Source: Nitrosomonadales bacterium (GTDB taxonomy: Bacteria; Pseudomonadota; Gammaproteobacteria; Burkholderiales; SG8-41). Taken from it: 49,576 nucleotides of DNA. The stretch spans positions 1 through 49,576 of the forward strand of contig JAYVQD010000473.1 in NCBI GenBank assembly GCA_043777275.1, read 5' to 3'. The notes beneath the pieces are model-generated. The model was not told the origin of the DNA. It made no database searches and saw only the letters and a list, made by a program, of their open reading frames with translations. Within the stretch, counting starts at the first letter, position 1; every line of letters begins with the position of its first letter. Below are positions 14,408 to 31,659 of this stretch, piece by piece. Made by a program: the position numbers and the translations under genes.

Positions 14408-14419
14408 AATCGCCCCTGG

Positions 14420-16225: not shown

Positions 16226-16416
16226 GCGGGAATTTGCTCCGGGTTGGCGTCCGATGCATGGGTCGTTGCTGTGGCGATCGGCCAGACTGTGGGTGTGGCT
16301 ACTTTCCGTTGGCGTACGTTGACGAGGATGGCGCCGGCCTGCGGCTGCATCGACAAGCAGTGTTTGCGGCCACGACGATGATAGTCCACGAAGACGGAAA
16401 TGATCCCGGCTCTCAT
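16222..16416 (-). CDS. Possible small protein (64 aa) translationally coupled to the kinase gene
   Basis: Its TGA overlaps the kinase ATG (ATGA at 16225..16222). Third positions are G/C-rich and AGGGGG lies just upstream of the ATG. I recognised no family. Confidence 0.3.
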   Translation of the reverse strand: MRAGIISVFVDYHRRGRKHCLSMQPQAGAILVNVRQRKVATPTVWPIATATTHASDANPEQIPA

Positions 16417-16467
16417 GCGCCCCCTATCTGCGGCTGATTCCTGCCGCCGCTGTTTAAGTCGCCCGCT

Positions 16468-17166
16468 TCACGGGGCCGACAGCTTCAATCCCAGTTTACC
16501 GACGGCGATCACGGCCTGCGTGCGATTGTTGACGTTGAGTGAACGCAGAATCCCGCTGATGTGAGTTTTAATCGTGCCTTCCGCGAGGTTCAACGCCCGG
16601 CAGATGAGTTTGTTAGGTTTACCCTGCACCAGCAGTGACAACACCTGCCCCTGGCGTTCGGTCAGCCCCAAGTCGCGGTAGGTGACCTCGGGTTGCGCGA
16701 CGCCCGGATCCGCCGGCGGATGCGGGTGTGCTGCTGTCGACTGGCGCAGCACGTCAGCGGGCAGATACACGCCACCGGCCAGCACCAGGCGCAATGCACC
16801 CAGCAACACGTCATTCGACGACGTTTTGGGAATGAATCCCATGGCGCCGTCGTCCAGTGCGCGCATCACACTTGCCGCATCGTCCGTGGCCGACAGCACC
16901 ACCACGGGCATGCCGGCGTGCTGTTCGCGCAACTGGTGCAGCACTTCAAAACCGTTGGCGTCCGGCAGGGACAGATCAAGCAGCACCAGGTTCAAGTCAG
17001 GGTTTTCCGACGCCGCGATCAGGGTTTCCTGCGCATTGGCGGCAGTCAGTAAATCCAATTCAGGATCGAGCACCTTGAGCACCTGGCGCAACGCGTCACG
17101 GATTAGTGGATGGTCATCAACCGCAAGTATCTTCACCGGCCCCTCACTTTGGTAGTGGATAGACAT
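16468..17166 (-). CDS. NarL/LuxR-family response regulator
   Basis: Receiver domain (ILAVDDHPLIRDAL, VLLDLSLPD) plus a C-terminal LuxR HTH (LTERQGQVLSLLVQGKPNKLICRALNLAEGTIKTHISGILRSLNVNNR). Confidence 0.9.
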   Translation of the reverse strand: MSIHYQSEGPVKILAVDDHPLIRDALRQVLKVLDPELDLLTAANAQETLIAASENPDLNLVLLDLSLPDANGFEVLHQLREQHAGMPVVVLSATDDAASVMRALDDGAMGFIPKTSSNDVLLGALRLVLAGGVYLPADVLRQSTAAHPHPPADPGVAQPEVTYRDLGLTERQGQVLSLLVQGKPNKLICRALNLAEGTIKTHISGILRSLNVNNRTQAVIAVGKLGLKLSAP

Positions 17167-18149: not shown

Positions 18150-19010
18150 TCAGGCGGCGCCGGTCGCCACAGGCCGCTTGCGGTCGCTCACCCACTCACT
18201 CCACGAGCCGGGATACAGGCGCGAGCCCCCAAGGCCCGCGACTTCCATCGCCAGCAGATTGTGGCAGGCGGTGACACCAGAGCCGCACTGATGCACGACA
18301 CTGGCGGGTGCGTGCGCATGGATTACCGACGCGAATTCGCTTTTCAGTGTGGCCGCTGACTTAAAGCGGCCGTCTTCCGCGAGATTGTTTTTGAAGAATC
18401 GATTGATCGCGCCCGGGATATGCCCGGCCACCGGATCCAGTGTTTCGTTTTCGCCGCGGAAACGGTCGGGGCTGCGCGCATCAACCACACATACTTTTTG
18501 GCCGCTTAAGTTGCTGACGATCAACGCGGTGTCAGCCGCCGATTGCGGACTCGGATTGGGATTGTAGGTTGTGGGTTTGATGACGGGCAGTTCGGCGGTG
18601 ACGCGATGCCCGGCTTTAATCCACGCATCAAAACCGCCATCCAGCACCGCGGCCTGGGTGTGCCCGACCCAACGCAGCATCCACCACAGGCGCGAGGCGT
18701 AGACGCCACCCGCGCTATCGTAGGCGATGATTTGTTTGCTGTTGTCGATGCCGAGCGCGGCGAGCCGTAGCGTGAAGGTAATCGGATGCGGCAGCGGATG
18801 GCGGCCATTGATGCCGGTCTTGGGGCCGGACAGGTCTTCGTCGAGATGCAAAAAACGCGCGCCGGGGAGGTGCGATTGCGCGTAGGCACGGCGCCCGGCT
18901 TCGTAGTTTGCGAGATCATGACGGCAGTCGCACACGATCACGTTCGCGTCATTCAGATGCGCGGCAAGATCGGAAGCGGATATCAGCGTGGAAAATACCA
19001 TCGGGCTCAT
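18150..19010 (-). CDS. sseA: Tandem-rhodanese sulfurtransferase (3-mercaptopyruvate/thiosulfate sulfurtransferase type)
   Basis: Two rhodanese domains with active-site loop HQCGSGVTACH and PGSWSEW. The start is at 19010 (MSPMVFSTLIS), and the track ORF is over-extended. Confidence 0.85.
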   Translation of the reverse strand: MSPMVFSTLISASDLAAHLNDANVIVCDCRHDLANYEAGRRAYAQSHLPGARFLHLDEDLSGPKTGINGRHPLPHPITFTLRLAALGIDNSKQIIAYDSAGGVYASRLWWMLRWVGHTQAAVLDGGFDAWIKAGHRVTAELPVIKPTTYNPNPSPQSAADTALIVSNLSGQKVCVVDARSPDRFRGENETLDPVAGHIPGAINRFFKNNLAEDGRFKSAATLKSEFASVIHAHAPASVVHQCGSGVTACHNLLAMEVAGLGGSRLYPGSWSEWVSDRKRPVATGAA

Positions 19011-19126
19011 CGGATGCCTGGCTGCAAGGTGGCGCGGGTTGCAAAGGTAATCGAAAAAAAATCCGTTGCAAAGTGCTGCACGTGAAAAGGGCGGTAAGGC
19101 AACCACCCTAATTACCTTATCCGCCC

Positions 19127-19151: not shown

Positions 19152-20288
19152 TTATTTTTTCTGCAAACCTGCCCGCCGTGATGTCAGGTGGGGATCGATT
19201 TCGCGCCGCAAAAATTCATGGAAGTGCTGCATGCCGTCTTCCATCGGCGATTGATACGGGCCGGCATCGCTTACGCCCTGCTGGTAGAGCGCTTTGCGGC
19301 CTACCGTCATGCGGTTGATGATTTCGCGGTCTTCAATCGCGGTTTCACGATACGCGGCTTGTTCGGCTTCGATGAACTCGCGCTCGAACAGCACGATGTC
19401 CTCGGGGTAGTAAAACTCCACGACGTTAGTACAGGCTTCGGGCCCGCGCGGAATAATGTGGCTCACCACCAGTACATGCGGATACCACTCGACCATCAGC
19501 GCCGGAAAATACGTCAGCCAGATTGCGCCGTGCGCCGGTGTTTTGCCTGCGCTGTGGCGATTGACCTGATCGTGCCAGCGCCGATAAACGTCACTGCCGG
19601 GTTTGGTGAGGCCGCGTTTGACGCCGCAGGTTTGCACGCTGTGCCAGGCGCCGAATTCCCATTGGAGATCAGCGACATCGACAAATCCCGCAAGGCCGGG
19701 ATGAAACGGCTCGACGTGATAATCCTCGAGGTAGACCTCGATAAAGGTTTTCCAGTTGCAGGCGTATTCTTCGGTCTCCAGGCGATCGAACATGAAGCCC
19801 GAGAAATCAAGATTTTTTTCCGCGCCGAGTGACGCGAGATCACGCGCGATGTCGCGCTGGCCGGCGAACAGCAGCCCGTTCCAGTTTTGCAGCGGCGTTT
19901 GCGCGAGATCAAGACAGGGGTTTTGCGGGAAGTGCGGCGCACCGAGCAACTTGCCGTCAAGCCCGTAGGTCCAGCGGTGCAGCGGACACACAATGTTTTT
20001 CGCGTTGCCGCGGCCTTGCAGCATGATCGCCTGACGATGGCGGCAGATGTTGTTCAGCAGCGCGACGCCCTCGGCGCCATGCACCAGCGCGCGGGCGTTA
20101 TCGGCCCACGACAGCGCGTGGTAGTCGCCTGCGTTGGGGGTGAGTAATTCGTGGCCGCTGTAGGTCGGGCCGGCGTCGAACAGCAGACGCTTTTCGAGTT
20201 CATGAATTCGTGGATCGAAATACCAATCCACCGGAAGCTGCGAAGTGGTGGTTTTGCGTAAGGCGAGGGTGCTGGAGAGGTCTGACAT
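19152..20288 (-). CDS. Rieske [2Fe-2S] non-heme iron oxygenase, alpha-subunit-like
   Basis: Rieske motif CRHRQAIM...CPLHRWTY and a C-terminal catalytic domain with EVYLEDYHVEPFHPG (His ligands). Length 378 aa. Confidence 0.85.
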   Translation of the reverse strand: MSDLSSTLALRKTTTSQLPVDWYFDPRIHELEKRLLFDAGPTYSGHELLTPNAGDYHALSWADNARALVHGAEGVALLNNICRHRQAIMLQGRGNAKNIVCPLHRWTYGLDGKLLGAPHFPQNPCLDLAQTPLQNWNGLLFAGQRDIARDLASLGAEKNLDFSGFMFDRLETEEYACNWKTFIEVYLEDYHVEPFHPGLAGFVDVADLQWEFGAWHSVQTCGVKRGLTKPGSDVYRRWHDQVNRHSAGKTPAHGAIWLTYFPALMVEWYPHVLVVSHIIPRGPEACTNVVEFYYPEDIVLFEREFIEAEQAAYRETAIEDREIINRMTVGRKALYQQGVSDAGPYQSPMEDGMQHFHEFLRREIDPHLTSRRAGLQKK

Positions 20289-20369: not shown

Positions 20370-20393
20370 TAAAAGAGGGGACTATTCTTCCCC
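20370..20393 (-). terminator. Rho-independent terminator closing the seven-gene arsS-arsM cluster
   Basis: On the minus strand, a GGGGA-AGAATAG-TCCCC hairpin is followed by TCTTTTAA. It lies about 45 nt 3' of the DUF3047 stop. Confidence 0.5.
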
Positions 20394-20437: not shown

Positions 20438-21205
20438 TTACTTTGTAACCTTATGTTTATAAAAAGAAATATCCCCGTAGTGCGCTATAACCGATTCGCC
20501 GGTGTTGTCGGTATCGGTGGCGATGGCGACGGCTAAGACGGGTGGCGCATCCTCGCCGAATGCCGCCTTGAAATCCGCTGCCACATCGCGCTCCACTGCC
20601 AGCCATTGATTAACGCGGGAGGCGCCGCTTTCGACGACGATCATGCGCACGCGATCGGTATAGCGGCTGGCGACAATAGTGCCAGCGGGCGCTTTGCCGT
20701 CCCACACATAGCACAGCGTTGCGGTGGGAATGTTCGGATCGTACAGCGCGCGCGCCAGGCGAATTTTGCTGCGCTCGACGAAGGATAATTTTTCCAGCGG
20801 ATAGTCGAACATCACGTACACGCGCGCCGGATAGTCGTCGCCTTCTTTTAAACGGATGTCGCTGGCTTTTAGAATGTTGGCGATTTTCCAGCGCCATTTG
20901 AGGATGGGGAATTCAGCGGGGTTCACTTTCATGTTGCGGCTGAGTCCCGACGCGGCTGCCGTGGATTCGGCACGCAGCACGGTGGTGCCGCCATCGTCCA
21001 CCAGCGTATAGCGCGTGGGGTTTTTCGCGCTGGATACGCCCAGCGGCTTCCAGGTTTGCGGCAGGGCGGCGCCCGCTTGCAGCGCGGAGAAGGCCGCCAC
21101 GACAACCACGACCGTCGCGGTGTCAGATTGCGACAGCGCAGCCGCTGCCATGCCCGTGGCCGCGAGCGCACAGAGAAACCGGTTACGCCAGCGTTTTATT
21201 TTCAT
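20438..21205 (-). CDS. DUF3047-like secreted protein
   Basis: Start MKIKRWRNRFLCALAATGMAAAA (signal peptide) at 21205. The conserved body (FPILKWRWKI, DDYPARVYVMFD, LCYVWD) is typical of DUF3047. It overlaps the upstream gene's end by 23 nt. Confidence 0.7.
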   Translation of the reverse strand: MKIKRWRNRFLCALAATGMAAAALSQSDTATVVVVVAAFSALQAGAALPQTWKPLGVSSAKNPTRYTLVDDGGTTVLRAESTAAASGLSRNMKVNPAEFPILKWRWKIANILKASDIRLKEGDDYPARVYVMFDYPLEKLSFVERSKIRLARALYDPNIPTATLCYVWDGKAPAGTIVASRYTDRVRMIVVESGASRVNQWLAVERDVAADFKAAFGEDAPPVLAVAIATDTDNTGESVIAHYGDISFYKHKVTK

Positions 21206-21842
21206 TGAGAATGATGTGTTCCGACCAGCGCCGGTAGTCTTCGGGGCGGTCAATGTCCCATAGCGTTTCCAGTTCGTGCCAGCGCCAACCCAGTGTGTGC
21301 AGCCGCGCGCGCGTGGCGGCGAGCACGCTGTCGCCGCCCCACGCCATGCCGTCGAACACGCGCGCGTCGCATTGCGTCAGACCGATCAGCGCATAGCCGC
21401 CGTCTTCGGCGGGGATCAGCACCGCGTCGTTGCCTTGCGTCAATGCACTTTGCGCCTCGCGCAGATGTTGCACGGTCAGCACTGGACAATCGGCGCCGAT
21501 GAGAATCACGCGCGCGTGGCGTGCCAGCCCGTCCTCGAACGCGTGACACATGCGTGCGCCCAGATCGCGGCCTTGCTGCGGCGCCAGCGCCACGCCGTAG
21601 CGGCGGCCGCAGTCACGCAAAAACGCATCGTTGGTATCGGGCGCGCAGTGCAGTTCAACAGGGCCGAGCCCGGCATCGGTGGCGGTGACCAGCGCGCGAT
21701 GCAGCAACTGGCCGTGCAGCGCCGCCGCGCCCTCGGCGCCGAGTGCGGGTATCAAGCGCGTCTTCACCGCGCCCGCGCGCGGCGCTTTGGCGAAGACGAT
21801 GGTCAGCGCGTCACAGCTTGTGGATGACATGGTGTACGACAT
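21183..21842 (-). CDS. DUF2064 / TIGR04282-type transferase ('transferase 1, rSAM/selenodomain-associated')
   Basis: LTIVFAKAPRAGAVKTRL, VILIGADCP and IPAEDGGYALIG motifs of the CofC-like nucleotidyltransferase fold. Confidence 0.8.
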   Translation of the reverse strand: MSYTMSSTSCDALTIVFAKAPRAGAVKTRLIPALGAEGAAALHGQLLHRALVTATDAGLGPVELHCAPDTNDAFLRDCGRRYGVALAPQQGRDLGARMCHAFEDGLARHARVILIGADCPVLTVQHLREAQSALTQGNDAVLIPAEDGGYALIGLTQCDARVFDGMAWGGDSVLAATRARLHTLGWRWHELETLWDIDRPEDYRRWSEHIILNENKTLA

Positions 21843-22506
21843 AGCGCTCGGCCAGTGTATTCGGGTCTGCGCCCAGCCAGTACTGGAAACGCAGCCGCCA
21901 CATCAAAAAAATCGTGCGCCACACCCCGTGTTTTTCCCAGCGCCGCCCGGACGTGATGATGCGGTGACGCAGCGCCAGCGGCTTGCCGAACGCTTTCAAT
22001 TTTTTGGTGAGCGCCACGTCTTCCATCAGCGCGATTTCCGGATAGCGGCCTGCCGCCTCGAACAGCGAGCGCGTGACGAACAGGCCCTGGTCGCCCGTCG
22101 CAACACCGGTCAAACGTGAGCGCAAATTCATCATCGTGGCGATAACACGCAGCAGCGGATGTGTGCCGGTTACGGTGACATCAAAGCGGCCCCAAGTCTT
22201 GCGCGCGCGATTGAGGCCATCGACGATGATGCCGTCCGCCGCGGGCGGTAGCCGCGAGTCGGCGTGCAAAAACAGCAACAGATCGCCGCGCGCCTGTGCC
22301 GCACCGGCGTTCATCTGAAGCGCGCGGCCACGCGGCGCGCTGATAATCTGATCGGCCAGCGGGCGCGCGATGTCTATCGTGGCATCGGTGCTGCCGCCAT
22401 CCACCACCACGATTTCCACGCCACGCGTGCGCAGCGGCGCCAGCGCCTGCAGCGATTCGGCGAACCCTTCAGCTTCGTTCAGGCAGGGGATGATGACCGA
22501 TAGCAC
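21811..22506 (-). CDS. Family-2 glycosyltransferase, TIGR04283 type ('transferase 2, rSAM/selenodomain-associated')
   Basis: MLSVIIPCLNEAE, VVDGGSTD and LFLHADSRLP are GT2 signature segments. It overlaps the TIGR04282 gene. Confidence 0.85.
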   Translation of the reverse strand: MLSVIIPCLNEAEGFAESLQALAPLRTRGVEIVVVDGGSTDATIDIARPLADQIISAPRGRALQMNAGAAQARGDLLLFLHADSRLPPAADGIIVDGLNRARKTWGRFDVTVTGTHPLLRVIATMMNLRSRLTGVATGDQGLFVTRSLFEAAGRYPEIALMEDVALTKKLKAFGKPLALRHRIITSGRRWEKHGVWRTIFLMWRLRFQYWLGADPNTLAERYVVHHVIHKL

Positions 22507-22512
22507 ACGCGG

Positions 22513-23328
22513 TTACTTTTTGGCGTCGTTAAGGCCCCAATCATAATCCAGATGCCTGATCTCGGCCTTGCCATCACGGATGATTTTTTGGTGCTCGGCG
22601 TTGTCGGTGAGCAGGTTCGCGTATTTGGCGAAGAATTGCTCGCGCGACTTGATGCCTTTCAATCCGCTGGTGAAATCCACCGAATACCACTTGAAGATTT
22701 CGGACACTTCCAGAGCGTTGCTGGCGGCGTTGTAACGGTTACGCGTCTTGTCGGACAGGGCGCGCACCACTTGTTCTTCGAGCTGCGCGTCGAGCTTGTC
22801 GGCGACAAAGGCTTCTTCACGCAGCATCGGGCAGCCGATCGAGGCACAGTTCACCGCCATGTGGATGCGCGGGTCGTCGTAGACGCCTTTGGCACGAATG
22901 GTGTCGTGCTCGATGTTGTCGAGCGAAAATTCGCGGCCAAACAGCTTGAAGAATTTATCTTTGAACGGGTTGCCGATCAGCTTGCCGTAATCCCACACCG
23001 ATTTGATGTTGGGGTAACGCAGCAGAATTTTCTCGACCATGTGCGCGTTGTAGGCGTTAAGCAAAAAAGCGAGCTGCTGATTTTTGCTCCAGCTTTTGAA
23101 GTCGGCCTCGCTGACTTTAGAGAGCGTTTCAAGATACGTTTTCAGTGCTGCGCGATCCTTGGCGATTTCCGCGTAGCGCACTTGCGACGCCTTGCCGCTG
23201 TCAATTACCACCGTGTGTTTTTTCAGCAGTCCGCTCCATGCGGCGTGCGAGTGATCGAACTGCGCCCACGCGGAAACGGCTGTGAGCAGCCATAGCGAAA
23301 GTATTGTAACTATTTGTTTTTTAATCAT
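22513..23328 (-). CDS. DUF547 domain protein with signal peptide
   Basis: LLNAYNAHMVEKIL, SLDNIEHDTIR and RIHMAVNCASIGCP are typical DUF547 blocks. N-terminus is MIKKQIVTILSLWLLTAVSAWA. Confidence 0.75.
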   Translation of the reverse strand: MIKKQIVTILSLWLLTAVSAWAQFDHSHAAWSGLLKKHTVVIDSGKASQVRYAEIAKDRAALKTYLETLSKVSEADFKSWSKNQQLAFLLNAYNAHMVEKILLRYPNIKSVWDYGKLIGNPFKDKFFKLFGREFSLDNIEHDTIRAKGVYDDPRIHMAVNCASIGCPMLREEAFVADKLDAQLEEQVVRALSDKTRNRYNAASNALEVSEIFKWYSVDFTSGLKGIKSREQFFAKYANLLTDNAEHQKIIRDGKAEIRHLDYDWGLNDAKK

Positions 23329-23330
23329 TT
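23306..23330 (+). repeat. AT-rich motif copy e (GTAACTATTTGTTTTTTAATCATTT)
   Basis: It overlaps the start codon and first 7 codons (MIKKQIVT) of the DUF547 gene, and lies 14 nt from the stop of the upstream gene. Confidence 0.7.
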
Positions 23331-23343
23331 TATTCTCATCTGC

Positions 23344-25554
23344 TTAGTGATGTTCTGCCGCTGGCGCGGCCTTGGTACCTTGGCCTATCAACCCTAACGC
23401 AGCACCGGCCACCGTGCCGACACTGCCTGCGCCGCGCCGCCAGTGGTTAAACGCTTCGGCAAAACGCAGTTGCTGCTCGGTGGTCTGTGCTTTTTTCCAC
23501 ACCCCTGCCGCGTATTTGTTGGCCTCGCCCAGCGTCGGATAAATATGGATGGTGCCGAGTATCTTGTTCAAGCCAAAACCGTGTTTCATCGCTGCGACGT
23601 ATTCGACCAGCAAGTCGCCGGCGTGTTCCCCAGCGATGGTGACGCCGAGTATTTTGTCGCTGCCCGGCGGTGTAATCACTTTTACCAAGCCATGCGCTTC
23701 GCCATCGGCGATGGCGCGGTCGAGATCGTCGATGCCGTAGGTGTACACCTCGTGCGGAATGTTCTTTTCTTTGGCCTCGGTTTCGTTCAGCCCCACGCGC
23801 GCGACTTCGGGGTCGGTAAACGTACACCACGGTACCACCGAGTAATCGACCTTGAATTTTTTGAAGCTGCCAAACAGCGCATTCACCGCGCAGAACCACG
23901 CCATGTGCGCGGCGGTATGCGTGAATTGGTAGGGCCCGGCCACGTCACCGCAGGCGAAAATATTCGGGTAGAGGGTTTCCAGATACTCGTTGACCTCGAC
24001 CACGCGCGTTGCCGGAATGCCGAGCGCCTCAAGGCCGTAGCCTGTGAGATTGGCGACACGGCCCACCGCACACAGGATTTCGTCGAAAGCGATGCGCGTC
24101 TCGGCGCCGTTGTTTTCGACGACCAGAAACTTCTCGCCGTTTTCAATCACCACTTGCCTGGCCTTGTGATTGACCAGTAAGTTGACGCCTTCGGCCTGAA
24201 AGCGCTTCATCACCAGATCGGAGACGTCCGGGTCTTCGCGAATCAATAGGCGCGGCAGCATTTCCACTTGCGTGACCTGCGAACCAAAGCGCGCAAAACA
24301 TTGCGTCAGCTCGGAACCGATCGGGCCGCCGCCCAGCACCACCAGGCGCTTGGGCAGCTTGCGCAGATTCCACACGTTATCGGAGGTCAGCGGATTCGCT
24401 TCCGCCAGGCCCGGAATCGGCGGGATGAACGGGTGTGCGCCAGCGGCGATGACGATGTTTTTGGTGGTGAAGGTTTTTTCGCCGTCAGCGGTTTTGACTT
24501 TCACTTCCCACGGCGACACGATTTGCGCTTCGCCGTGCACGCATTCCACCCCCAGGCTGGTATAGCGCTCGGCGGAATCATGCGGCTCGATATCCTTCAC
24601 GATGCGTTGCACACGCTCCATCACCTCGGCGAAATCAAATTCCGCGCTGGCCGAGCGGATGCCGAATTCCTGCGAGCGTTTCATGTGCGATAACAACTTC
24701 GCCGAGCGGATCAGCGCTTTCGACGGCACACAGCCGGTGTTCAAACAATCGCCGCCCAATTTGTGTTTTTCAATCAACGTGACCTTGGCTTTGACCGCCG
24801 CCGCGATGTACGAGGTAACCAGGCCCGCCGAGCCGCCGCCGATCACCACCACGTTGCGATCATACGACGCAGGGCGCGGCCATTTTGCGTAGACCTTGCG
24901 CGCCTTCAACGCATCGAGAAATTTTTTCGCGATCAACGGAAAAAGGCCGAGCAGCACGAAGGCGGAAATCAAACCCGCGCCGATTTTGAATTCGCCGAGC
25001 TGGGTGCCGGCGTAGACGAACACCAGGGTGCCTGCCAGCATGCCGATCTGGCTCACCCAGTAGAACGTCACCGCTTTGAGGGTGGTCAACCCCATCACCA
25101 GATTCACCATGAAAAACGGAAACGCCGGTACCAGCCGCAGCGCGAACAGATAAAACGCGCCTTCTTTCACCACGCCGTCGTTGATCGGTTTTAACTTGTC
25201 GCCGAACTTGCCCTGCACCCAATCGCGCAGCAAAAAGCGCGAGGTGATAAACGCCAGCGTCGCGCCGATACTGGAGGCAAACGACACCAGTACCGTGCCC
25301 CACAATAGGCCGAAAATCGCGCCGCCCGCCAGCGTCATGATCGCTGCGCCGGGCAGTGACAGGCCCGTGACCACGACGTAAAGCACAAAATAAATCAGCG
25401 CCGCCTGCGCCCAGTTTGCCTGCACGTACGCGGCGATCTCGGTCTGTTTCGACAGGAAAAACTCTTTGGTCAGGAAGTGGTGACCACCCAGCGCGAAGAA
25501 CGCCGCGATAGACGCAGCGATGAGGATGAAGACCAGCAGCTTGTTGCGGTTCAT
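23344..25554 (-). CDS. Fusion of a TVP38/TMEM64 (DedA-type) membrane domain with a pyridine nucleotide-disulfide oxidoreductase (mercuric reductase / dihydrolipoamide dehydrogenase-like)
   Basis: The N-terminal ~220 aa are hydrophobic and DedA-like (LSLPGAAIMTLAGGAIFG). They are followed by VVVIGGGSAGL, the redox centre GGDCLNTGCVPSK and the dimerisation-domain HIYPTLGE. Confidence 0.85.
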   Translation of the reverse strand: MNRNKLLVFILIAASIAAFFALGGHHFLTKEFFLSKQTEIAAYVQANWAQAALIYFVLYVVVTGLSLPGAAIMTLAGGAIFGLLWGTVLVSFASSIGATLAFITSRFLLRDWVQGKFGDKLKPINDGVVKEGAFYLFALRLVPAFPFFMVNLVMGLTTLKAVTFYWVSQIGMLAGTLVFVYAGTQLGEFKIGAGLISAFVLLGLFPLIAKKFLDALKARKVYAKWPRPASYDRNVVVIGGGSAGLVTSYIAAAVKAKVTLIEKHKLGGDCLNTGCVPSKALIRSAKLLSHMKRSQEFGIRSASAEFDFAEVMERVQRIVKDIEPHDSAERYTSLGVECVHGEAQIVSPWEVKVKTADGEKTFTTKNIVIAAGAHPFIPPIPGLAEANPLTSDNVWNLRKLPKRLVVLGGGPIGSELTQCFARFGSQVTQVEMLPRLLIREDPDVSDLVMKRFQAEGVNLLVNHKARQVVIENGEKFLVVENNGAETRIAFDEILCAVGRVANLTGYGLEALGIPATRVVEVNEYLETLYPNIFACGDVAGPYQFTHTAAHMAWFCAVNALFGSFKKFKVDYSVVPWCTFTDPEVARVGLNETEAKEKNIPHEVYTYGIDDLDRAIADGEAHGLVKVITPPGSDKILGVTIAGEHAGDLLVEYVAAMKHGFGLNKILGTIHIYPTLGEANKYAAGVWKKAQTTEQQLRFAEAFNHWRRGAGSVGTVAGAALGLIGQGTKAAPAAEHH

Positions 25555-25621
25555 GGGTGTTTCCTGGCTAGTTTCATCTGGGTCGTGCCAAACGCGCGCA
25601 ACTTACGGTCGCGGGCCGCAC

Positions 25622-26596
25622 TCAGCAGCAACCGCCGCCGTCATAGAAGTAAGTCGAGCCGGTGATGTGGATGTCCTGCCGTCCGAGTGCCGCCAGAGCG
25701 CCGGCGGTTTTGTCGCACACCGCGAGCGGCTGGTTCTGCGTCAGGCAGTGCCCCTTGTTGTCGTCAAAAGAATCGCCGTCACCAAAGTAGATCGCGGTTT
25801 TTCCTGTGAACACGCACGGGCCGTCGGCAGGCATGGGGTCTTTGATGGCGCAGATTTCGACGCTCTCGACAAAAATCACCTGAGCGGTGGGGTAGTGGCG
25901 CGGCGACAGAATACGGTAGGGCCGCTTGGCGCGCACCTCGATGGTGCCGAAACCGACATCGGTCAGGCGCTTGATATAGGCCGCCAGCGGTATCGCGCCG
26001 GTCAGACACAGCGCGCGCAGGCGATCGTCGTTTTTAAGGTTGGCGGGCATTGGTGTTTCGCACACGGGGTCGGACAGTATCAGGCGGCCGTGGGGCTTTA
26101 ACACGCGGTACATTTCACCGAGGGCGCGCTGCAAATCGTCGTCGTGAAAAATATTGAACAAACAATTTTGCGCTGCGACATCAATGCTGCCGCCGGCAAT
26201 CGGCAGGTTCAGTGCGTCACCTTTGCGCAGATCAATAAAGTTTGATTTGAACCACGGATTTTGCTGTTCGGCCTCGCGCAGATTGTCGCCACAGGCCGCG
26301 ATCATTTCATCGACCACATCCATGCCGATGACGCTGCCGGCATGGCGCGAGAAGTAGGCAAATTGCAGCAGCTCCATACCCCCGCCGACGCCGACATACA
26401 GCACAGTGGGGTTGCCGGCGAGATCGCGCGGATGCACGGTGCTGCCGCAGCCGTAGTTCATGGCCAGCATTTTTTTCGGGATCGCCAGTTCGGGGAGTTG
26501 CCACACCGGTGTGGTGGTGCAACACAGTCCCTCCTGCGGTTTCAATGCGGCTTCTTTGTAGACGTCGCGGGTGGTGGCGTGATAGGAGTCGTCCAT
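25622..26596 (-). CDS. arsM: ArsM-like SAM-dependent (arsenite) methyltransferase
   Basis: Cys pairs (GLCCTT, NYGCGS), SAM motif VLYVGVGGGMEL, and a C-terminal domain ending GGGCC. It sits directly downstream of arsS. Confidence 0.8.
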   Translation of the reverse strand: MDDSYHATTRDVYKEAALKPQEGLCCTTTPVWQLPELAIPKKMLAMNYGCGSTVHPRDLAGNPTVLYVGVGGGMELLQFAYFSRHAGSVIGMDVVDEMIAACGDNLREAEQQNPWFKSNFIDLRKGDALNLPIAGGSIDVAAQNCLFNIFHDDDLQRALGEMYRVLKPHGRLILSDPVCETPMPANLKNDDRLRALCLTGAIPLAAYIKRLTDVGFGTIEVRAKRPYRILSPRHYPTAQVIFVESVEICAIKDPMPADGPCVFTGKTAIYFGDGDSFDDNKGHCLTQNQPLAVCDKTAGALAALGRQDIHITGSTYFYDGGGCC

Positions 26597-26633
26597 GTTT
26601 GTTATGCGCTATTAAAGAGGTTCGTAAATCAGA

Positions 26634-27599
26634 TTAGGCGGCCAGCGCGCCGCCGCAACTGGAGCCCTGGCCCGCAGTGCAGCCGTAGCAATGGTCTTTG
26701 ACCACGATCGGATTGTCCGCGAGTTCCACGCCCATCAATTCGCGCAAGTGCGTGCGCGGTTTATTTTTCCACGCCAGCGGCAGGCCAAGCATCTGATTAA
26801 AGTCGCAATCGTAGACGTAGCCTTTCCAATCCACCGACAGCAGCGACTTGCACATCAGCGAATCCAGGTTTTGCGGCTGATAGGCGTTTTTCAGCAGATC
26901 CATGTAATGCGTGAACTCGCCTTTGGAAATCAGCGTGCTGCCGAAGCGCTGTATCGGCATATTGGTGATGACATAAAGTTCGGTAAATTCAATGCCGAAG
27001 TGTTCGCCTAAATGTTTGCGGTAATCGCTTTGCAGCGGGCCTTGCGCAGGCGGCAGCACCGCCCCTTGCGGGTTGTAGACCAGACTCAACTTGAGCGGCG
27101 ATCCGGCCTTGCCGTAGCCTTTTTCATTCAGCAGTTGCAGTGCGCGGATGCTGGCATCGAACACGCCTTTGCCGCGCTGGCGATCGACGTTTTCTTCGAG
27201 GTAGCAGGGCAATGACGCCACGATTTCAACGGCGTTGCCGTGCAGAAAATCCGCTAAATCTTCTTGTCCCGGCTCATGCAATATCGTGAGGTTGCAGCGA
27301 TCGATCACCTGCACGCCGATGTCGCGCGCGGCTTTGACCAGCAGGCGAAAGTGCGGATTCAATTCCGGCGCGCCGCCGGTCAGATCGAGTGTGGTGATGC
27401 CCGTGGCCTTGAGAAACGCGATGACCTCGAATACGGTCTCGCGGCTCATCGCCTCGGTGCGCGTGGGGCCCGCGTTCACATGACAGTGCAAACAACTTTG
27501 ATTGCACTTGTAGCCGAGATTGACTTGCAGCGTGTCTACGCGGTTGCGGCGTATCGCGGGAAAGTCGCTGACTTCCATACGCGGCAGGGTGGCGTGCAT
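26634..27599 (-). CDS. arsS: Radical SAM/Cys-rich protein ArsS (TIGR04167 type)
   Basis: CNQSCLHCH radical-SAM cluster motif and a C-terminal Cys-rich tail DHCYGCTAGQGSSCGGAL. Length 321 aa. Confidence 0.9.
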   Translation of the reverse strand: MHATLPRMEVSDFPAIRRNRVDTLQVNLGYKCNQSCLHCHVNAGPTRTEAMSRETVFEVIAFLKATGITTLDLTGGAPELNPHFRLLVKAARDIGVQVIDRCNLTILHEPGQEDLADFLHGNAVEIVASLPCYLEENVDRQRGKGVFDASIRALQLLNEKGYGKAGSPLKLSLVYNPQGAVLPPAQGPLQSDYRKHLGEHFGIEFTELYVITNMPIQRFGSTLISKGEFTHYMDLLKNAYQPQNLDSLMCKSLLSVDWKGYVYDCDFNQMLGLPLAWKNKPRTHLRELMGVELADNPIVVKDHCYGCTAGQGSSCGGALAA

Positions 27600-27706
27600 T
27601 TATCAATCTCCAATGAATTTTTTAGCCTGCGGCTGCCGACACACACACATTTGTCGTAGCGGCGTTGCTTACCTTTCACATTTTCGCTTAATTGGCGGTG
27701 TATAAT

Positions 27707-27731
27707 ATAAGTATTTGTTTTTAAACAATAT
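27707..27731 (+). repeat. AT-rich motif copy f (ATAAGTATTTGTTTTTAAACAATAT)
   Basis: It lies between the bufC-like stop (27741) and the arsS start (27599). With its flank (TATAATATAAGTATTTGTTTTTAAAC) it closely matches copy h. Confidence 0.8.
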
Positions 27732-27740
27732 TTCGTGACG

Positions 27741-28574
27741 TTATCGGCGTCGCGTGACGCTCATGCGGTTGAACGCGCCTGCGTGCAACAGCGCGGCCAT
27801 CAGTTGTTGCAAATCGGCGCCGTGTTGTGCCGCCAACGCGTCGCGTGCGGCTTCCGCCAGCGTGCCGCCGTTGGCGCAGCGGTCGAGAAACGCGCAGCCT
27901 GCAGCGTCCAGCGCGACCCACTCGACAGTGCCGCGCGGCCGCGTGAGTAGCGCGCCCTCGCCATCGCCCGCGTGATCGTACTCAATTTGCCGCGCCGGCT
28001 GCCAAGCCTCGTCATTCTTGCGTTCAGCGGCACGATGGTGTGCCCAGATGCTGAATACCGGTGCGTCCGTAAACCATGCCCAACGCGCCGCAGCATGCGG
28101 GTATAGCACGGCGGTGGCGAGTTTGGCCGGCGCGAGATTCGCGATCACGGCGGCGTCGAGCGGGGTTTCGTCGCGTGCGGTGTGCGCCTCGGTCCACAGC
28201 CGGTCCAGGCGCGCGACCCCGGCCACATACGGCAGCGATGCCGCCGGCTGGGCATGCGGCAGATAGCGCGAGAGAAACGCGGCAAATAACTCGCCGTAGT
28301 TAAGCAATGAGGGATCCTCGGGCGGCGATTCACGCACGTAGATCGCGGCGGCGGCGCGAAACCATTCGTCGCCGGTGAGCCGCGCCACTGCGGGATAGTT
28401 CGCCTGCAGCGCGTCGATGCAGCTTTTCATCACGGTATTGCGGTACACCGCGAAGCCGGGTTGCGACGCGAGCGCGGCGACGGTGCCCGATACGGGGGCA
28501 TTGTGGTGGGGCGGCGCCCATAGCGCTTGCGCAAAGGCGGTCTGAAAACCAGCAAGTGTTTTCTGTGTCTGCAT
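27741..28574 (-). CDS. bufC: DUF2063 protein (partner of the DUF692 MNIO enzyme; BufC-like)
   Basis: FAVYRNTVMKSCIDALQANYPAVARLTGDEWF and NYGELFAAFL are typical of the DUF2063 N-terminal domain. It lies 8 nt downstream of the DUF692 gene. Confidence 0.8.
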   Translation of the reverse strand: MQTQKTLAGFQTAFAQALWAPPHHNAPVSGTVAALASQPGFAVYRNTVMKSCIDALQANYPAVARLTGDEWFRAAAAIYVRESPPEDPSLLNYGELFAAFLSRYLPHAQPAASLPYVAGVARLDRLWTEAHTARDETPLDAAVIANLAPAKLATAVLYPHAAARWAWFTDAPVFSIWAHHRAAERKNDEAWQPARQIEYDHAGDGEGALLTRPRGTVEWVALDAAGCAFLDRCANGGTLAEAARDALAAQHGADLQQLMAALLHAGAFNRMSVTRRR

Positions 28575-28582
28575 GGTGTGGT

Positions 28583-29422
28583 TCAGGCAGCTTTCGCGAG
28601 CGGCTCGTTCAGCAACGCGGCTGCGCGGTTGCGTTCGTCGAGCAACGCGTCGAATGCCGGCAGATGCGCGTCGCGTTCGATCAGGGTTGGGCGTGGGCCG
28701 ATACGCCGGATAAGCCGTTCATACAGCGCCCAGACTTCGGCGCTTACCGGTGCATCATGGCTGTCGATCAGCAGGGTGGCGCCGAGATTCGGGTCTTGCG
28801 AATGTCCGGCCAGATGAATTTCCATGATCGCCTGTGCGGGCAATCGATCCAGAGTTTGTGCCGCGTCAAACCCCAGATTGCACGCGCTGACGTAAACGTT
28901 GTTGACGTCGAGCAACAGGCCGCAACCGGTGCGGCGCGTAAGTTCAGTGAGAAAATCGATTTCGTTCCAGTCGTGGCCGTCGATTGCCAGATAATGCGAC
29001 GGGTTTTCGATGGCGATAGGGCGATGGAGCGCCTCTTGCGTGATGCAGATATTATCGGCGATGCGCGCGAGTGCCTGATGCGTGCGCGGAAACGGCAACA
29101 GGTCAGGATGATACGCGCCGTTCCAGAACGACCAGGCCAGGTGTTCCGAAACGAGCGACGGTTCAACGCGGCGCGCAAGCTCAGCGAGCCGCGCCAGATG
29201 CACCGTGTCGGGACGCGCATCGGCAGCCAGTGACAGCGACACGCCATGCAGCGATAGGGCATGGCGCTCGCGTATCGCCTCCAGCCACGCCATGCGCGGC
29301 CCGCCAGCGGCGTAATAATTTTCAGGATGCACCTCGAACCACAGCCCGTGCGCGGAACAGGCCAGCGCCGCATCGTAATGTTGCGGCTTTAGGCCGAGTC
29401 CGGCGGTGAGGGCTGTGGTCAT
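28583..29422 (-). CDS. bufB: DUF692 multinuclear non-heme iron oxidase (MNIO; MbnB/BufB-like)
   Basis: [39 protein letters not shown] and EIHLAGHS are the canonical DUF692 blocks. Confidence 0.9.
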
Positions 29423-29450: not shown

Positions 29451-29762
29451 TTACATCTTGTCTTTCTTATCCATCATCGCCGGCTTGAGCGATCCCATGC
29501 CGTTCGGCGATTTCATCGTGGTGCAGGCGCCCTTGGCGACGTACTTCCAATCCGCCGCTTGATAGTCCACTTTGGACGTGCCGGCACAACTGGTGCCGGG
29601 CCCGGAGGCGCAATCGTTCTTGCCGGCCATCGATATACCGTAGCATCTTTCCTTTTCGCCTTTGATCGAGGCACCCTTGTCTTGCGCAAGTGCTGCGCCT
29701 GACGCAAGTGCGGCGAGCGCGGCGAGCGTGACGGCGGTTACAGCCATAGGACGTGAACTCAT
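29451..29762 (-). CDS. bufA: DUF2282 signal-peptide precursor (bufferin BufA1-like RiPP precursor, 103 aa)
   Basis: AGGAG lies upstream of the ATG at 29762. A Sec signal peptide ends ALAQ. The core [43 protein letters not shown] has four spaced Cys. Confidence 0.85.
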
Positions 29763-29838
29763 GATGTTGGCTCCTGTGATGTGATTGAGGGGATCGACCG
29801 GACATGCCTGCATGGCGCACTAACGCGGTCTCAGAGTA

Positions 29839-29866
29839 ATTCGATGCGGTTTGGCGAAAGGTTACA
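29839..29866 (-). promoter_or_regulatory. ECF-type promoter candidate for the bufABC operon (TGTAACC-N16-CGAAT)
   Basis: The minus strand reads CTGTAACCT TTCGCCAAACCGCAT CGAATTA, about 75 nt upstream of the bufA ATG. Confidence 0.4.
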
Positions 29867-29905: not shown

Positions 29906-29933
29906 TGTAACCTGATAGTGCAAATTGACGAAT
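29906..29933 (+). promoter_or_regulatory. ECF-type promoter candidate for the sigma/anti-sigma operon (TGTAACC-N16-CGAAT)
   Basis: The plus strand reads CTGTAACCT GATAGTGCAAATTGA CGAATAA. The architecture is identical to the element on the other strand, 39 nt away. Confidence 0.35.
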
Positions 29934-29949: not shown

Positions 29950-30501
29950 GTGAGCGCAAGCGCAAGTGAAACCCGGTTACGGCAATTGCTGATGCGTGGG
30001 TTGTCCGGCGAAAACCCCGCCTACCATCAATTTTTGCTGGAACTGAGCGGGCATTTGCGCGCCTTTTTAAGAGGGCGGCTCACGCGCTTGCCGGACGAGG
30101 TGGAGGATATCGTGCAGGAAACGTTGCTCGCCATACACAACCAGCGTCACACCTATGATGCGTCACAGCCGCTGACGGCGTGGGTGTATGCGATTGCCCG
30201 CTACAAGATGGTGGATATGTTGCGGCGTCATGCCGTGCGCGGCGCGCTGCATGATCCGCTGGACGATGAATTGGCGATCTTTGCGGCGTCGGACAACGAA
30301 GCGGGGGACGCGCGCCGTGATCTCGCGCAACTGTTGGCGCAATTGCCGGACGCGCAACGCCTGGCGATTCAAAGCATGAAACTCGACGGGCATTCCGTGG
30401 TGGAGGCTGCGCGGCTGACCGGCATGTCTGAATCCGCCGTTAAAGTGGCGGTGCATCGCGGGCTTAAAAAATTGGCATTGCTGATCAGGAGCGAATCATG
30501 A
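29950..30501 (+). CDS. ECF (sigma-70 family) RNA polymerase sigma factor
   Basis: Region 2 ([36 protein letters not shown]) and region 4 ([40 protein letters not shown]). GTG start, with an alternative ATG at 29992. Confidence 0.9.
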
Positions 30502-31139
30502 AAACCGCTGAACTGATTGGTCTGCTGGCGAACGGCGCGCCAGCCGTAGACGCCGGTGTGGTTCGGCGCCGTTATGTCATGGCGATGGGCTGGGGCGCTT
30601 TCGGCACACTGTTGCTGATGTCGATCTGGTTCGGTGTGCGGCGTGATCTTGCTGCCGCCGCAGTAGTGCCGATGTTCTGGGTGAAGCTGGCGTTTCCGGC
30701 CGTGCTGCTCTCGGGTGCGCTGATGGCCGCCTTGCGCTTGTCGCGTCCGGGTGTGCGTCTGGGACGCGTACCGCTGGTGATGGCGGCACCCGTGCTCGCG
30801 ATGGCGCTGCTGGCGGCGGTGCTGCTGTTGAACGCCGCGCCTGAAAGCCGGAGTTATCTGCTGTTCGGTGTGTCATGGCGGGTGTGCCCGTTCAATATTG
30901 CGGCGCTGTCTGTGCCTGCGTTCGTCGCCGCGTTGTGGGCGATGAAGGGTCTCGCGCCAACGCGTCCGGTGTGGGCCGGCGCTGCTTCGGGGCTGCTCGC
31001 GGGCACGCTCGGCGCACTGGCGTACTCGCTGTACTGTCCGGAAATGGCGGCGCCGTTTATCGCAATCTGGTATTTGCTGGGCATGCTGATTCCCGCCGTG
31101 GCCGGCGGGATGATGGGGCCGGCGGTATTGCGCTGGTAG
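30498..31139 (+). CDS. NrsF/DUF1109-type membrane anti-sigma factor
   Basis: ATGA overlap with the sigma gene. There are six hydrophobic helices, and the N-terminal [13 protein letters not shown] is typical of DUF1109. Confidence 0.8.
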
Positions 31140-31194
31140 TGCGCGGTGCGGCGTGCGCGGTTTGCAGGGGTGTAATTCAAACCAAGGAGATTTT

Positions 31195-31659
31195 ATGATT
31201 AAAGCGAAGCGAGTTTCACAAACGATATTCCAGTGCGTGATGGTGTTCGCCACCGGCGCCGCGATTGCAGCCGACGGGCTGATCGAAGTCAAAAGCGCGT
31301 ATGGCGTTAACGAAACCATCACGCGCTTAGAGGCCGCAGCCAAGGAGCGCAAGCTGATTATTTTTCTGCGTGTCGATCACGCGGCGGGCGCGCAAAAAAT
31401 CGGCAAGACCTTGCGTCCTACCGAGTTGTTGATCTTCGGCAATCCGCAGGGCGGCACGCCGCTGATGGAATGCGCGCAATCGGCGGGCATCGACTTGCCG
31501 CTCAAAGCGCTGGCGTGGGAAGACGCTTCAGGGCAAGTGTGGCTCGGCTATAACGATCCGCTCTATCTGGCCGCGCGTCACGGCGCAAAAGATTGCGCGC
31601 AGGTGGCGCAGGGTTTGCGCAAGGCGCTGGACGGGTTGGCGGGCGCTGCCACAAAGTAA
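31195..31659 (+). CDS. DUF302 domain protein with signal peptide
   Basis: AAGGAGA lies upstream of the ATG at 31195. LLIFGNPQGGTPLM and DLPLKALAWED blocks are typical of DUF302. Confidence 0.8.
   Translation: MIKAKRVSQTIFQCVMVFATGAAIAADGLIEVKSAYGVNETITRLEAAAKERKLIIFLRVDHAAGAQKIGKTLRPTELLIFGNPQGGTPLMECAQSAGIDLPLKALAWEDASGQVWLGYNDPLYLAARHGAKDCAQVAQGLRKALDGLAGAATK

Follow-up and report, generated by a model that had tools for sequence, protein, structure and literature searches.

Among the organic arsenic species of marine food webs, arsenosugars are the main ones, and how dimethylarsinoyl-adenosine is turned into a riboside has been an open question ever since the pathway was put forward (the Edmonds-Francesconi scheme) in the 1980s. 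The question is raised again by a row of seven genes on a 49,576-nucleotide contig assigned to a Nitrosomonadales bacterium (JAYVQD010000473.1, assembly GCA_043777275.1; this whole stretch is called the window below), which is headed by arsS and arsM and continues with five uncharacterised members: do these five belong to the same pathway and, if so, what would they contribute? We think it probable that the locus is a proteobacterial arsenosugar biosynthesis operon, made of a conserved cytoplasmic core and a lineage-specific redox and envelope module. The cluster and its relatives give a short list of candidates for the missing steps, namely a purine nucleoside phosphorylase or methylthioadenosine phosphorylase (PNP/MTAP), a CofC-like activating enzyme and an inverting GT2 glycosyltransferase, and they tie three families of unknown function (a DedA-fused MerA-like reductase, DUF547 and DUF3047) to arsenic metabolism. 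The comparison suggests that arsenosugar synthesis may not be confined to cyanobacteria and algae but extend to heterotrophic proteobacteria, where it would belong to a metal-stress response.

A seven-gene cluster headed by arsS and arsM

Seven open reading frames follow one another on the minus strand between positions 20438 and 27599, tightly packed (Table 1). From arsS to the DUF3047 gene, the successive distances are 37, 67, 15, 6, -32 and -23 nt, and gaps and overlaps of this size argue for a single transcript. An earlier examination made from the letters alone (the sequence-only reading) had described seven same-strand genes with gaps of -32 to 67 nt and had assigned their products to families. 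The coordinates bear out the arrangement, and profile searches bear out the assignments: judged by the NCBIfam curated cut-offs (release 20) and the Pfam gathering scores, all seven proteins lie above the thresholds of the families named, including TIGR04167, TIGR04282, TIGR04283, PF04784, PF11249 and PF09335. The terminator proposed at about 20380 fared less well: a hairpin is present 45 nt past the DUF3047 stop codon, but it is a weak site with a weak T tract, and the region holds 13 terminator-like sites against 11.8 expected from shuffled sequence, thus no excess. The host appears to be betaproteobacterium-like, and the relatives of its ArsS come from Burkholderiales metagenome-assembled genomes.

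Table 1. Features of the window in and around the arsS-arsM cluster
Feature	Position	Strand	Remarks
arsS	26634-27599	-	Radical SAM with C-terminal DUF3641 Cys-rich domain; TIGR04167, PF04055, PF12345
arsM	25622-26596	-	Arsenosugar-linked arsenite S-adenosylmethionine methyltransferase subtype; NF038099
DedA/VTT-flavoprotein disulfide reductase fusion	23344-25554	-	736 residues; PF09335, PF07992, PF02852
DUF547	22513-23328	-	Predicted exported; PF04784
GT2 glycosyltransferase	21811-22506	-	TIGR04283, PF00535
DUF2064	21183-21842	-	CofC-like nucleotidyltransferase fold; TIGR04282
DUF3047	20438-21205	-	Predicted exported, probable beta-sandwich; PF11249
Terminator-like hairpin	20377-20393	-	5-bp stem with 4 G-C pairs, then TCTTTTAACC
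DUF2063-arsS gap	27600-27740	-	141 nt
DUF2063	27741-28574	-	Bufferin-like operon, directly upstream of arsS
MNIO/DUF692	28583-29422	-	Bufferin-like operon; PF05114, 323 bits
DUF2282 (BufA precursor)	29451-29813	-	Bufferin-like operon
Sigma-F/NrsF-type ECF motif	29840-29866	-	TGTAACC-N16-CGAA; precedes the bufferin-like operon
Second sigma-F-type motif	29906-29932	+	Motif search
ECF sigma gene	29950-30501	+	Pfam Sigma70_r2/r4; divergent from the bufferin/ars direction
NrsF anti-sigma gene	30498-31139	+	NrsF, 219 bits; divergent from the bufferin/ars direction
DUF302	31153-31659	+	Beyond the sigma/anti-sigma pair
Rieske/Ring_hydroxyl_A oxygenase	19152-20288	-	Downstream of the cluster
Two-domain rhodanese	18150-19106	-	Downstream of the cluster
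Patatin-like, kinase and regulator genes	11486-17166	-	973-residue protein with N-terminal patatin-like domain; hybrid histidine kinase; LuxR-type response regulator

The ArsS protein scores 457.2 bits against TIGR04167 (cut-off 300) and 183.9 bits against PF12345, and also matches PF04055. Its radical SAM (S-adenosylmethionine) motif CX3CX2C is at C32/C36/C39. The C-terminal tail reads DHCYGCTAGQGSSCGGALAA, with no TGA, so the all-cysteine tail noted earlier is real; in the tail CYGCTAGQGSSCGG, cysteine stands where some homologues carry selenocysteine. In an alignment, the three motif cysteines and C304/C307/C315 of the tail are unchanged in 12 relatives. ArsM scores 542.1 bits against NF038099 (AsSugarArsM; cut-off 400). 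Aligned with the solved ArsM 5evj, its C50, C145 and C197 fall on the GCG, NCxxN and CxxGA cysteine motifs; its N-terminal stretch carries a C25/C26 pair where 5evj has a single cysteine, and all five cysteines are invariant in four cluster homologues.

The nearest known system is the arsM-arsS arsenosugar pathway of Synechocystis sp. PCC 6803, reportedly described by Xue et al. in 2017 and 2019. The same two enzyme families are adjacent there and probably co-transcribed, ArsM supplying dimethylarsenite and ArsS adenosylating it, and the window proteins score above the thresholds of the equivalog and exception models that NCBIfam has for the arsenosugar pathway. The window differs in its betaproteobacterium-like host, in the five further genes that follow arsS and arsM and in a regulation that is apparently linked to an extracytoplasmic function (ECF) sigma factor. 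According to PMC13598754, ArsS, dimethylarsenite and SAM give 5'-deoxy-5'-dimethylarsinoyl-adenosine in vitro, this adenosylation being known for the Synechocystis ArsS only; two further sources summarise Synechocystis arsM-arsS genetics (10.1101/2022.09.23.509062) and cite Cheng et al. 2021 for the ArsS biochemistry (PMC12159101). This published work supports the view, already taken from the letters, that ArsS and ArsM are the known entry to arsenosugar synthesis, and the window ArsS is expected to adenosylate dimethylarsenite as well.

Recurrence of the gene set in related loci

The comparison covered 172 related loci, designated by L numbers where one must be named. A scan by ArsS alignment, with one genome per species, gave 80 loci (ArsS identity 60-76%) labelled mostly as Beta- and Gammaproteobacteria, with a few Alpha- and Zetaproteobacteria and one Deinococcota; 49 of these species-level loci are well flanked, with at least 3 kb upstream and at least 7 kb downstream of ArsS. 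Gene presence was scored from tblastn tables, a GC3-based gene caller (G+C at third codon positions) having been dropped for the 80 loci, in which it missed many genes. A second scan was anchored on NF038099-type ArsM in metagenome loci with a G+C fraction of 0.29-0.63 and an ArsS only 45-50% identical, and yielded 27 well-flanked loci (at least 4 kb on both sides).

Among the 49 ArsS loci, the GT2 gene is found in 42, the DUF2064 gene in 39 and the DedA-reductase fusion in 29, the last in several classes of Pseudomonadota. DUF547 and DUF3047 occur in 11 loci each, invariably together with the fusion. An ECF sigma factor is present in 11 and an ArsM-family methyltransferase in 10, while an unannotated protein of about 330 residues, here called X, is found in 12. 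The TIGR03169 "N-terminal-to-SelD" pyridine nucleotide-disulfide oxidoreductase likewise occurs in 12 (337 bits in L076, 7404-8525, plus 11 other loci), at the downstream end of proteobacterial ArsS clusters; the window has none.

The 27 ArsM-anchored loci hold ArsS in 18, DUF2064 and GT2 in 17 each, DUF547 in 15 and a PNP/MTAP-family phosphorylase in 14. A single-domain rhodanese (NF045521, "rhoda_near_glyco"), different from the two-domain rhodanese of the window, occurs in seven and a metallophosphoesterase in five. The DedA half of the fusion was found in one of them, the reductase half in two and DUF3047 in none. Locus L154 (G+C fraction 0.33) has, as consecutive genes, ArsS, rhodanese, DUF2064, PNP (PRK08202, 339 bits), ArsM (577 bits), DUF547 and GT2. 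In the ArsS scan, a phosphorylase is present in 6 of the 80 loci, and the proteobacterial loci L012, L034, L053 and L078 have an MTAP gene (TIGR01694, 276 bits) as the immediate upstream neighbour of arsS.

The recurrence of the same families around ArsS, in several classes of Pseudomonadota and in low-G+C lineages, puts the gene set far beyond chance. It also shows that the system is modular, a conserved core being accompanied by the accessory fusion, DUF547 and DUF3047. ArsS, ArsM, the purine-nucleoside/methylthioadenosine phosphorylase, DUF2064, GT2 and DUF547 make up a cross-phylum core; the fusion and DUF3047 are proteobacterial additions. The sequence-only reading had seen in the seven genes what looks like a complete, still undescribed pathway. 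The other genes are co-conserved with ArsS, but there is no one fixed set: none of the 49 loci holds all seven families and four hold the six without ArsM, although at least one close relative (L171/L172) shares the window arrangement up to its contig end. Nor is the pathway complete, the phosphorylase that recurs elsewhere being absent from the window. The novelty was overstated too, the core set being already recognised in NCBIfam: TIGR04167, TIGR04282 and TIGR04283 are all present in the window, adjacent and above cut-off, as that set is defined. The named set is without the phosphorylase, the reductase, DUF547 and DUF3047, and the window ArsS is the cysteine rather than the selenocysteine form. 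What is added here is PNP/MTAP and DUF547 as cross-phylum members, with the fusion and DUF3047 as lineage-specific ones.

The fusion is missing from 20 of the 49 ArsS loci, and DUF547 and DUF3047 are missing from 38 each. One may therefore ask whether only ArsM, ArsS, GT2 and DUF2064 matter, in a soluble arsenosugar detoxification like that of cyanobacteria, the other three genes being neighbours with unrelated or general stress functions and nothing new being encoded. The four families retained by this view are those already named for the arsenosugar pathway, DUF3047 is wholly absent from the low-G+C ArsM-anchored clusters, and the flanking Rieske and rhodanese genes (see below) show that local synteny alone can hold genes adjacent within a clade. 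Yet where the fusion does adjoin ArsS it is 31-72% identical to the window version and varies in position and orientation, DUF547 reappears in the distant low-G+C clusters in differing gene orders, and the restriction of DUF547 and DUF3047 to fusion-bearing loci (11 of 11 each in the ArsS-anchored set) and the close packing in the window also speak against mere neighbours. Taken together, the accessory proteins are 30-72% identical to those of the window, in varying positions and orientations, which argues for functional linkage rather than inherited synteny. We consider the purely soluble pathway unlikely.

Candidate enzymes for the steps after ArsS

The DUF2064 protein scores 207.6 bits against TIGR04282 (cut-off 134), and its gene overlaps the GT2 gene by 32 nt. 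Against F420_cofC (TIGR03552) it reaches 42.7 bits (E 4.6e-11), below the cut-off of 105, which makes it a relative of CofC but not a member. The family profile matches 3cgx in the PDB (7e-38), then the CofC/FbiD structures 6bwg (1.6e-3) and 2i5e (4.9e-3), and the only characterised relatives are the CofC/FbiD guanylyltransferases. The family alignment shows as invariant a K19...G24..K27-T-R-L30 loop (GxxKTRL), D93, D118 and E146-D-G-G-Y150. DUF2064 shares with CofC/FbiD (2-phospho-L-lactate/phosphoenolpyruvate guanylyltransferase of F420 synthesis) a GT-A-like nucleotidyltransferase fold and an N-terminal K/R-rich nucleotide-binding loop; it differs in its sub-threshold score, in the lack of an F420 context and in the proposed substrate, a sugar-1-phosphate. 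Because of these relatives and of the invariant loop and acidic residues, DUF2064 would fit a nucleotidyltransferase making a nucleoside diphosphate (NDP)-arsenoribose.

The GT2 protein, of 231 residues, scores 276.7 bits against TIGR04283 (cut-off 182) and 65.9 bits against PF00535. It has weaker and about equal matches to glucosyl-3-phosphoglycerate synthase (GpgS), far below that family's cut-off, and to polyprenyl-phosphate glycosyltransferases. The two transferases had been said to be described only as "rSAM/selenodomain-associated"; this is outdated, NCBIfam release 20 naming both TIGR04282 and TIGR04283 "arsenosugar biosynthesis glycosyltransferase", so that ArsS, ArsM and both transferases all carry arsenosugar biosynthesis naming there. 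The statement that the later steps have no assigned chemistry holds: in the literature, steps after ArsS involving the two families returned annotation mentions only, with no published biochemistry and no arsenoribosyl-transfer assay.

A route through these proteins can be proposed. ArsM would methylate As(III) twice to dimethylarsenite, and ArsS would then attach the 5'-deoxyadenosyl group of SAM to the arsenic, forming 5'-deoxy-5'-dimethylarsinoyl-adenosine; both reactions are established for the families. A PNP/MTAP-type phosphorylase could then remove the adenine, leaving 5-dimethylarsinoyl-alpha-ribose-1-phosphate; because the window encodes no phosphorylase, this step would fall to a housekeeping enzyme. 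DUF2064 would couple the arsenoribose-1-phosphate to a nucleoside triphosphate to form NDP-arsenoribose, and GT2 would move the arsenoribose, with inversion, to an acceptor (candidates are glycerol phosphate, phosphoglycerate or the phosphatidylglycerol head group), producing a beta-riboside. The ribose-1-phosphates released by PNP and MTAP have the alpha configuration, and GT2 enzymes invert it; an alpha-linked donor would thus give the beta-ribofuranoside form of natural arsenosugars. There is some resemblance to the two-step pathways of compatible solutes, in which glucosyl-3-phosphoglycerate synthase or glucosylglycerol-phosphate synthase is followed by a phosphatase: GT2 is weakly GpgS-like, and the metallophosphoesterase beside five of the 27 ArsM-anchored clusters would fit a phosphorylated acceptor that is dephosphorylated afterwards. 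The GpgS similarity is nonetheless far too low for family membership, and the window has no phosphatase gene.

Some relatives carry further small genes in this part of the cluster. A conserved, predicted membrane protein of 76 residues without Pfam match stands behind DUF2064 in some gammaproteobacterial clusters (L013, 12362-12592; L049, 12399-12629; L052, 2884-3111). A 202-residue protein without family match lies between DUF547 and GT2 in the close relatives L085 (12838-13446) and L090 (7290-7898), and the L085 cluster also holds a second GT2 gene and a PIN-domain gene.

The proposed redox and envelope components

The fusion protein joins a DedA/VTT membrane domain (about residues 1-225; PF09335, 72.2 bits over residues 71-184, gathering 33.9) to a class I pyridine-nucleotide disulfide oxidoreductase (about residues 230-690; PF07992, 203 bits; PF02852, 99 bits). 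The nearest solved relative is the MerA structure 5x1y (1e-73). The redox-active CxxxxC is C270/C275, and Tyr672 aligns with the tyrosine of the MerA PYLTMAE segment, a position which we take to be that of the catalytic histidine of glutathione reductase and lipoamide dehydrogenase. The C-terminal cysteine pair by which MerA binds Hg(II) is lacking, there being no cysteine beyond residue 560 in the C-terminal region. The score against MerA (TIGR02053) is 375.6 bits, below the cut-off of 454.45, and the RclA and Har cut-offs are not reached either, so the protein is better called MerA-like than a MerA. With MerA and the MerA-like reductases that have no C-terminal cysteines (RclA and hypothiocyanous acid reductase, Har) it shares the CxxxxC and the tyrosine, MerA being the best solved match; it differs from them in scoring below their cut-offs, in having neither an NmerA domain nor a C-terminal cysteine pair, and in its N-terminal DedA domain. 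The reductase would most likely keep the arsenical trivalent and thiol-reactive for ArsM and ArsS, or reduce imported pentavalent methylarsenicals, and the DedA part may move either the arsenical itself or a lipid-linked product through the membrane.

The DUF547 protein (PF04784, 84.5 bits, gathering 27) begins with a signal-peptide-like sequence, MIKKQIVTILSLWLLTAVSAWA/Q, and members are predicted to be exported or lipoprotein-anchored in nearly all clusters. It contains a near-invariant motif, RIHxAxxCASxxCP, with a CxxxxC pair at C161/C166; among 38 cluster homologues H156 is kept, C161 is found in 37 and C166 in all 38. Transfer of a function by fold was dropped, nothing having matched in the PDB. 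The DUF3047 protein (PF11249, 252.7 bits, gathering 27), whose gene overlaps that of DUF2064 by 23 nt, also has a signal-peptide-like N-terminus, MKIKRWRNRFLCALAATGMAAAALS. Its ATG start at 21205 is backed by a 255-aa database protein that is 99% identical, and a look-up of the product of an upstream TTG start matched nothing. The best PDB matches of its AlphaFold2 model are jelly-roll proteins (CFAP20-type, GH12-like and carbohydrate-binding modules), too weak for a chemistry to be assigned. A literature search for either family together with arsenic gave annotation mentions only. Both proteins, the first with its invariant CxxxxC, would have an extracytoplasmic role, directed at incoming arsenic or at an exported product.

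How far towards the envelope does the pathway extend? The sequence-only reading had favoured a membrane- or envelope-associated glycoconjugate or lipid of arsenic or another metalloid. In such a scheme GT2 would load arsenoribose onto phosphatidylglycerol or polyprenyl phosphate, DedA would flip the product and the exported DUF547 and DUF3047 proteins would process or transfer it; this is a sub-case of the arsenosugar operon proposed here. The fusion of the reductase to a membrane domain and the predicted export of the two proteins suit it, and GT2, although weakly similar to the undecaprenyl-phosphate glycosyltransferase ArnC, resembles GpgS, which has a soluble acceptor, just as much and shows no evident membrane segment. 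The jelly-roll fold modelled for DUF3047, with its weak matches to carbohydrate-binding and glycoside-hydrolase-like proteins, may point the same way, but the model is of low confidence, and the low-G+C clusters manage almost without the DedA half and entirely without DUF3047. Arsenosugar phospholipids have been reported in Synechocystis (Xue et al. 2014, as cited in PMC12159101). On this evidence, a lipid or glycoconjugate product is a possibility that we regard as doubtful. An envelope component as such is plausible, given the export of DUF547 in nearly all clusters, the signal peptide of DUF3047 and the DedA-fused reductase. The earlier proposal is partly supported, being right in outline as to an arsenosugar-type pathway with uncharacterised later steps and an envelope-facing component.

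A variable position behind arsS

Close relatives, with ArsS 80-96% identical, share the neighbourhood of the cluster, with xseB-ispA-dxs on one side and Rieske-rhodanese-DUF2784-FCSD-ClpA on the other, and differ in what lies between arsS and the fusion. This interval contains ArsM in the window, in L171/L172 and in L004; a PiT/PHO4 transporter plus ArsM in L099 (PF01384, 199 bits); X alone in L086 and L087; a sodium/solute-symporter-like permease plus X in L081, L083, L085 and L088; and a PhnD-type binding protein with an ABC permease and X in L090 (TIGR01098, 162 bits). In L089 a PhnD-type binding protein is followed soon after by the contig end. ArsM next to arsS is a minority state among the compared loci. 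At least three ArsM subtypes are found in ArsS clusters: NF038099 in L004, L016 and L062, PRK11873 in L052, and, in L047, L050, L053 and L070, proteins that stay below the cut-offs but have only ArsM models as their best NCBIfam hits. Of the three transporter families, two (PiT and PhnD-type) carry phosphate analogues, which fits arsenate and methylarsonate and strengthens the link to arsenic.

Protein X is often encoded beside a transporter (examples are L081, 4419-5411; L086, 9988-11067; L006, 10959-11903; L069, 12344-13345). Its alignment shows the invariant motifs PGRxCP, GGxYGN, FNGD, RGNVE, GCGCxYP, HGD and SHxC, and cysteine is invariant at four positions; no match was obtained in Pfam, in NCBIfam or by a profile search of the PDB. 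The order of the motifs had suggested a degenerate calcineurin-type phosphoesterase; this is unproven, hhalign giving 3.9% probability against a real Metallophos neighbour, with no database match. A mutual exclusion of ArsM and X was considered as well, but with one shared locus against about 2.4 expected (10 ArsM and 12 X among 49) it is not statistically meaningful.

Since 39 of the 49 ArsS loci have no ArsM within 10 kb, could ArsS, GT2 and DUF2064 serve another element such as selenium, or a phosphonate-like substrate, in most proteobacteria, with an arsenic role only where ArsM adjoins? The ArsS family includes selenoprotein forms (PMC13188914), the TIGR03169 oxidoreductase of 12 loci has SelD in its family name, and the PhnD-like binding protein also resembles, below cut-off, a putative selenate-binding family. 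The same transporters, PiT included, however fit arsenate and methylarsonate as analogues of phosphate and phosphonate, and several ArsM subtypes have been recruited independently into ArsS clusters. In the window a high-scoring arsenosugar-type ArsM stands directly behind arsS, elsewhere ArsM may be encoded at another place in the genome, and ArsS biochemistry is, so far as published (PMC13598754), specific to dimethylarsenite. We judge a general non-arsenic role very improbable.

Within the arsenosugar reading, a bolder version can be formulated, in which the operon would do more than detoxify. The position behind arsS would be an interchangeable "arsenic supply" cassette, holding either ArsM for de novo methylation or PiT, PhnD-type ABC and sodium/solute-symporter transporters which, with the Cys-rich protein X, would scavenge arsenate or methylarsenicals from the environment. 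The DedA-MerA-like fusion would be a membrane-bound reductase devoted to pentavalent (methyl)arsenicals; with exported DUF547 and DUF3047 it would form an undescribed envelope pathway for making or remodelling arsenosugar lipids, controlled by a metal-stress sigma factor. Taken as a whole this is speculative, and we would not expect it to hold in full.

Regulation

A bufferin-like RiPP operon lies directly upstream of arsS, and divergent from it are an ECF sigma gene and an NrsF anti-sigma gene (Table 1). The Caulobacter sigma-F consensus is GTAACC-N16-CGAA (PMC3511200). The window has exactly two copies of it where 0.01 would be expected, both of them in the divergent region between the sigma/NrsF pair and the bufferin-like genes. 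The sigma factor and NrsF are candidate regulators, and the minus-strand motif may drive the cluster from upstream: a search of the 141 nt before arsS gave no terminator-like site, so that transcripts of the upstream operon could read through. An alignment of the regions upstream of arsS showed a few blocks, with parts of this gap conserved among close relatives, but gave no convincing promoter. In relatives, the motif stands directly before arsS in L085 (6158-6183) and L015 (9942-9967), and ahead of a bufferin operon running into arsS in L089, L093 and L099. The Caulobacter sigma-F/NrsF regulon and bufferin operons (PMC3511200, PMC11626156) have the same promoter consensus, the same divergent pair and the same operon content (DUF2282-MNIO-DUF2063). 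No ars genes are reported from that regulon, whereas the bufferin operon continues into arsS in the window and in the last three relatives. Expression is probably linked to a metal-stress ECF sigma factor of the sigma-F/NrsF type and not to ArsR.

In other lineages arsS is closely preceded by a different ECF sigma gene. In L039 (9183-9940) and L065 (5116-5873), the sigma gene and one for a 74-residue zf-HC2-like protein (HxxxCxxC; Pfam zf-HC2 21.3 bits, just under the 22.2 cut-off) immediately precede arsS, the small gene standing between the other two; such a pair suggests that an anti-sigma switch sensing thiols or zinc operates there. DUF692, DUF2063 or DUF2282 genes are found within 10 kb of ArsS in L010, L032, L037, L046, L059, L089, L093 and L099, that is, in several unrelated lineages and in differing orientations, suggesting that bufferin-type metallophore operons are repeatedly associated with ArsS clusters. 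The window operon is without a DoxX gene, unlike those of Caulobacter and L089/L099.

Evidence against the arsenosugar reading

Several observations weigh against the reading that we prefer. The NCBIfam names of TIGR04282 and TIGR04283 are annotation inferences, all steps past ArsS are proposed ones, and DUF2064, with its low CofC score and its glycosyltransferase name, could be a second transferase. A tblastn search of the whole window found no PNP/MTAP homologue, and where a phosphorylase does stand beside the radical SAM gene it could serve general salvage of 5'-deoxyadenosine or methylthioadenosine instead. Given the ArsM-less majority of loci, arsenic specificity for all ArsS loci is an assumption. 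The flavoprotein is tied to arsenicals by gene neighbourhood alone, and several roles have been proposed for DedA proteins. The AlphaFold2 model of DUF547 (mean confidence score, pLDDT, 83) found no match in a PDB fold search (best E 1.3), and that of DUF3047 is a low-confidence one (pLDDT 63) whose best matches have TM scores of 0.4-0.5. As to regulation, the nearest sigma-F-type motif is about 2.2 kb upstream of arsS, ahead of the bufferin operon and not in the 141-nt gap, and a scan of the window genes from about 7 to 36 kb showed neither ArsR nor any ars resistance gene.

Neighbouring genes

The Rieske oxygenase and the two-domain rhodanese were considered as further members of the cluster. 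They adjoin it in the closest relatives only and were treated as local synteny. The patatin-like, kinase and regulator genes lie between the rhodanese and DUF2784 genes of the window; because rhodanese and DUF2784 are adjacent in the relatives L081 and L087, the three genes look like an insertion in the lineage of the window.

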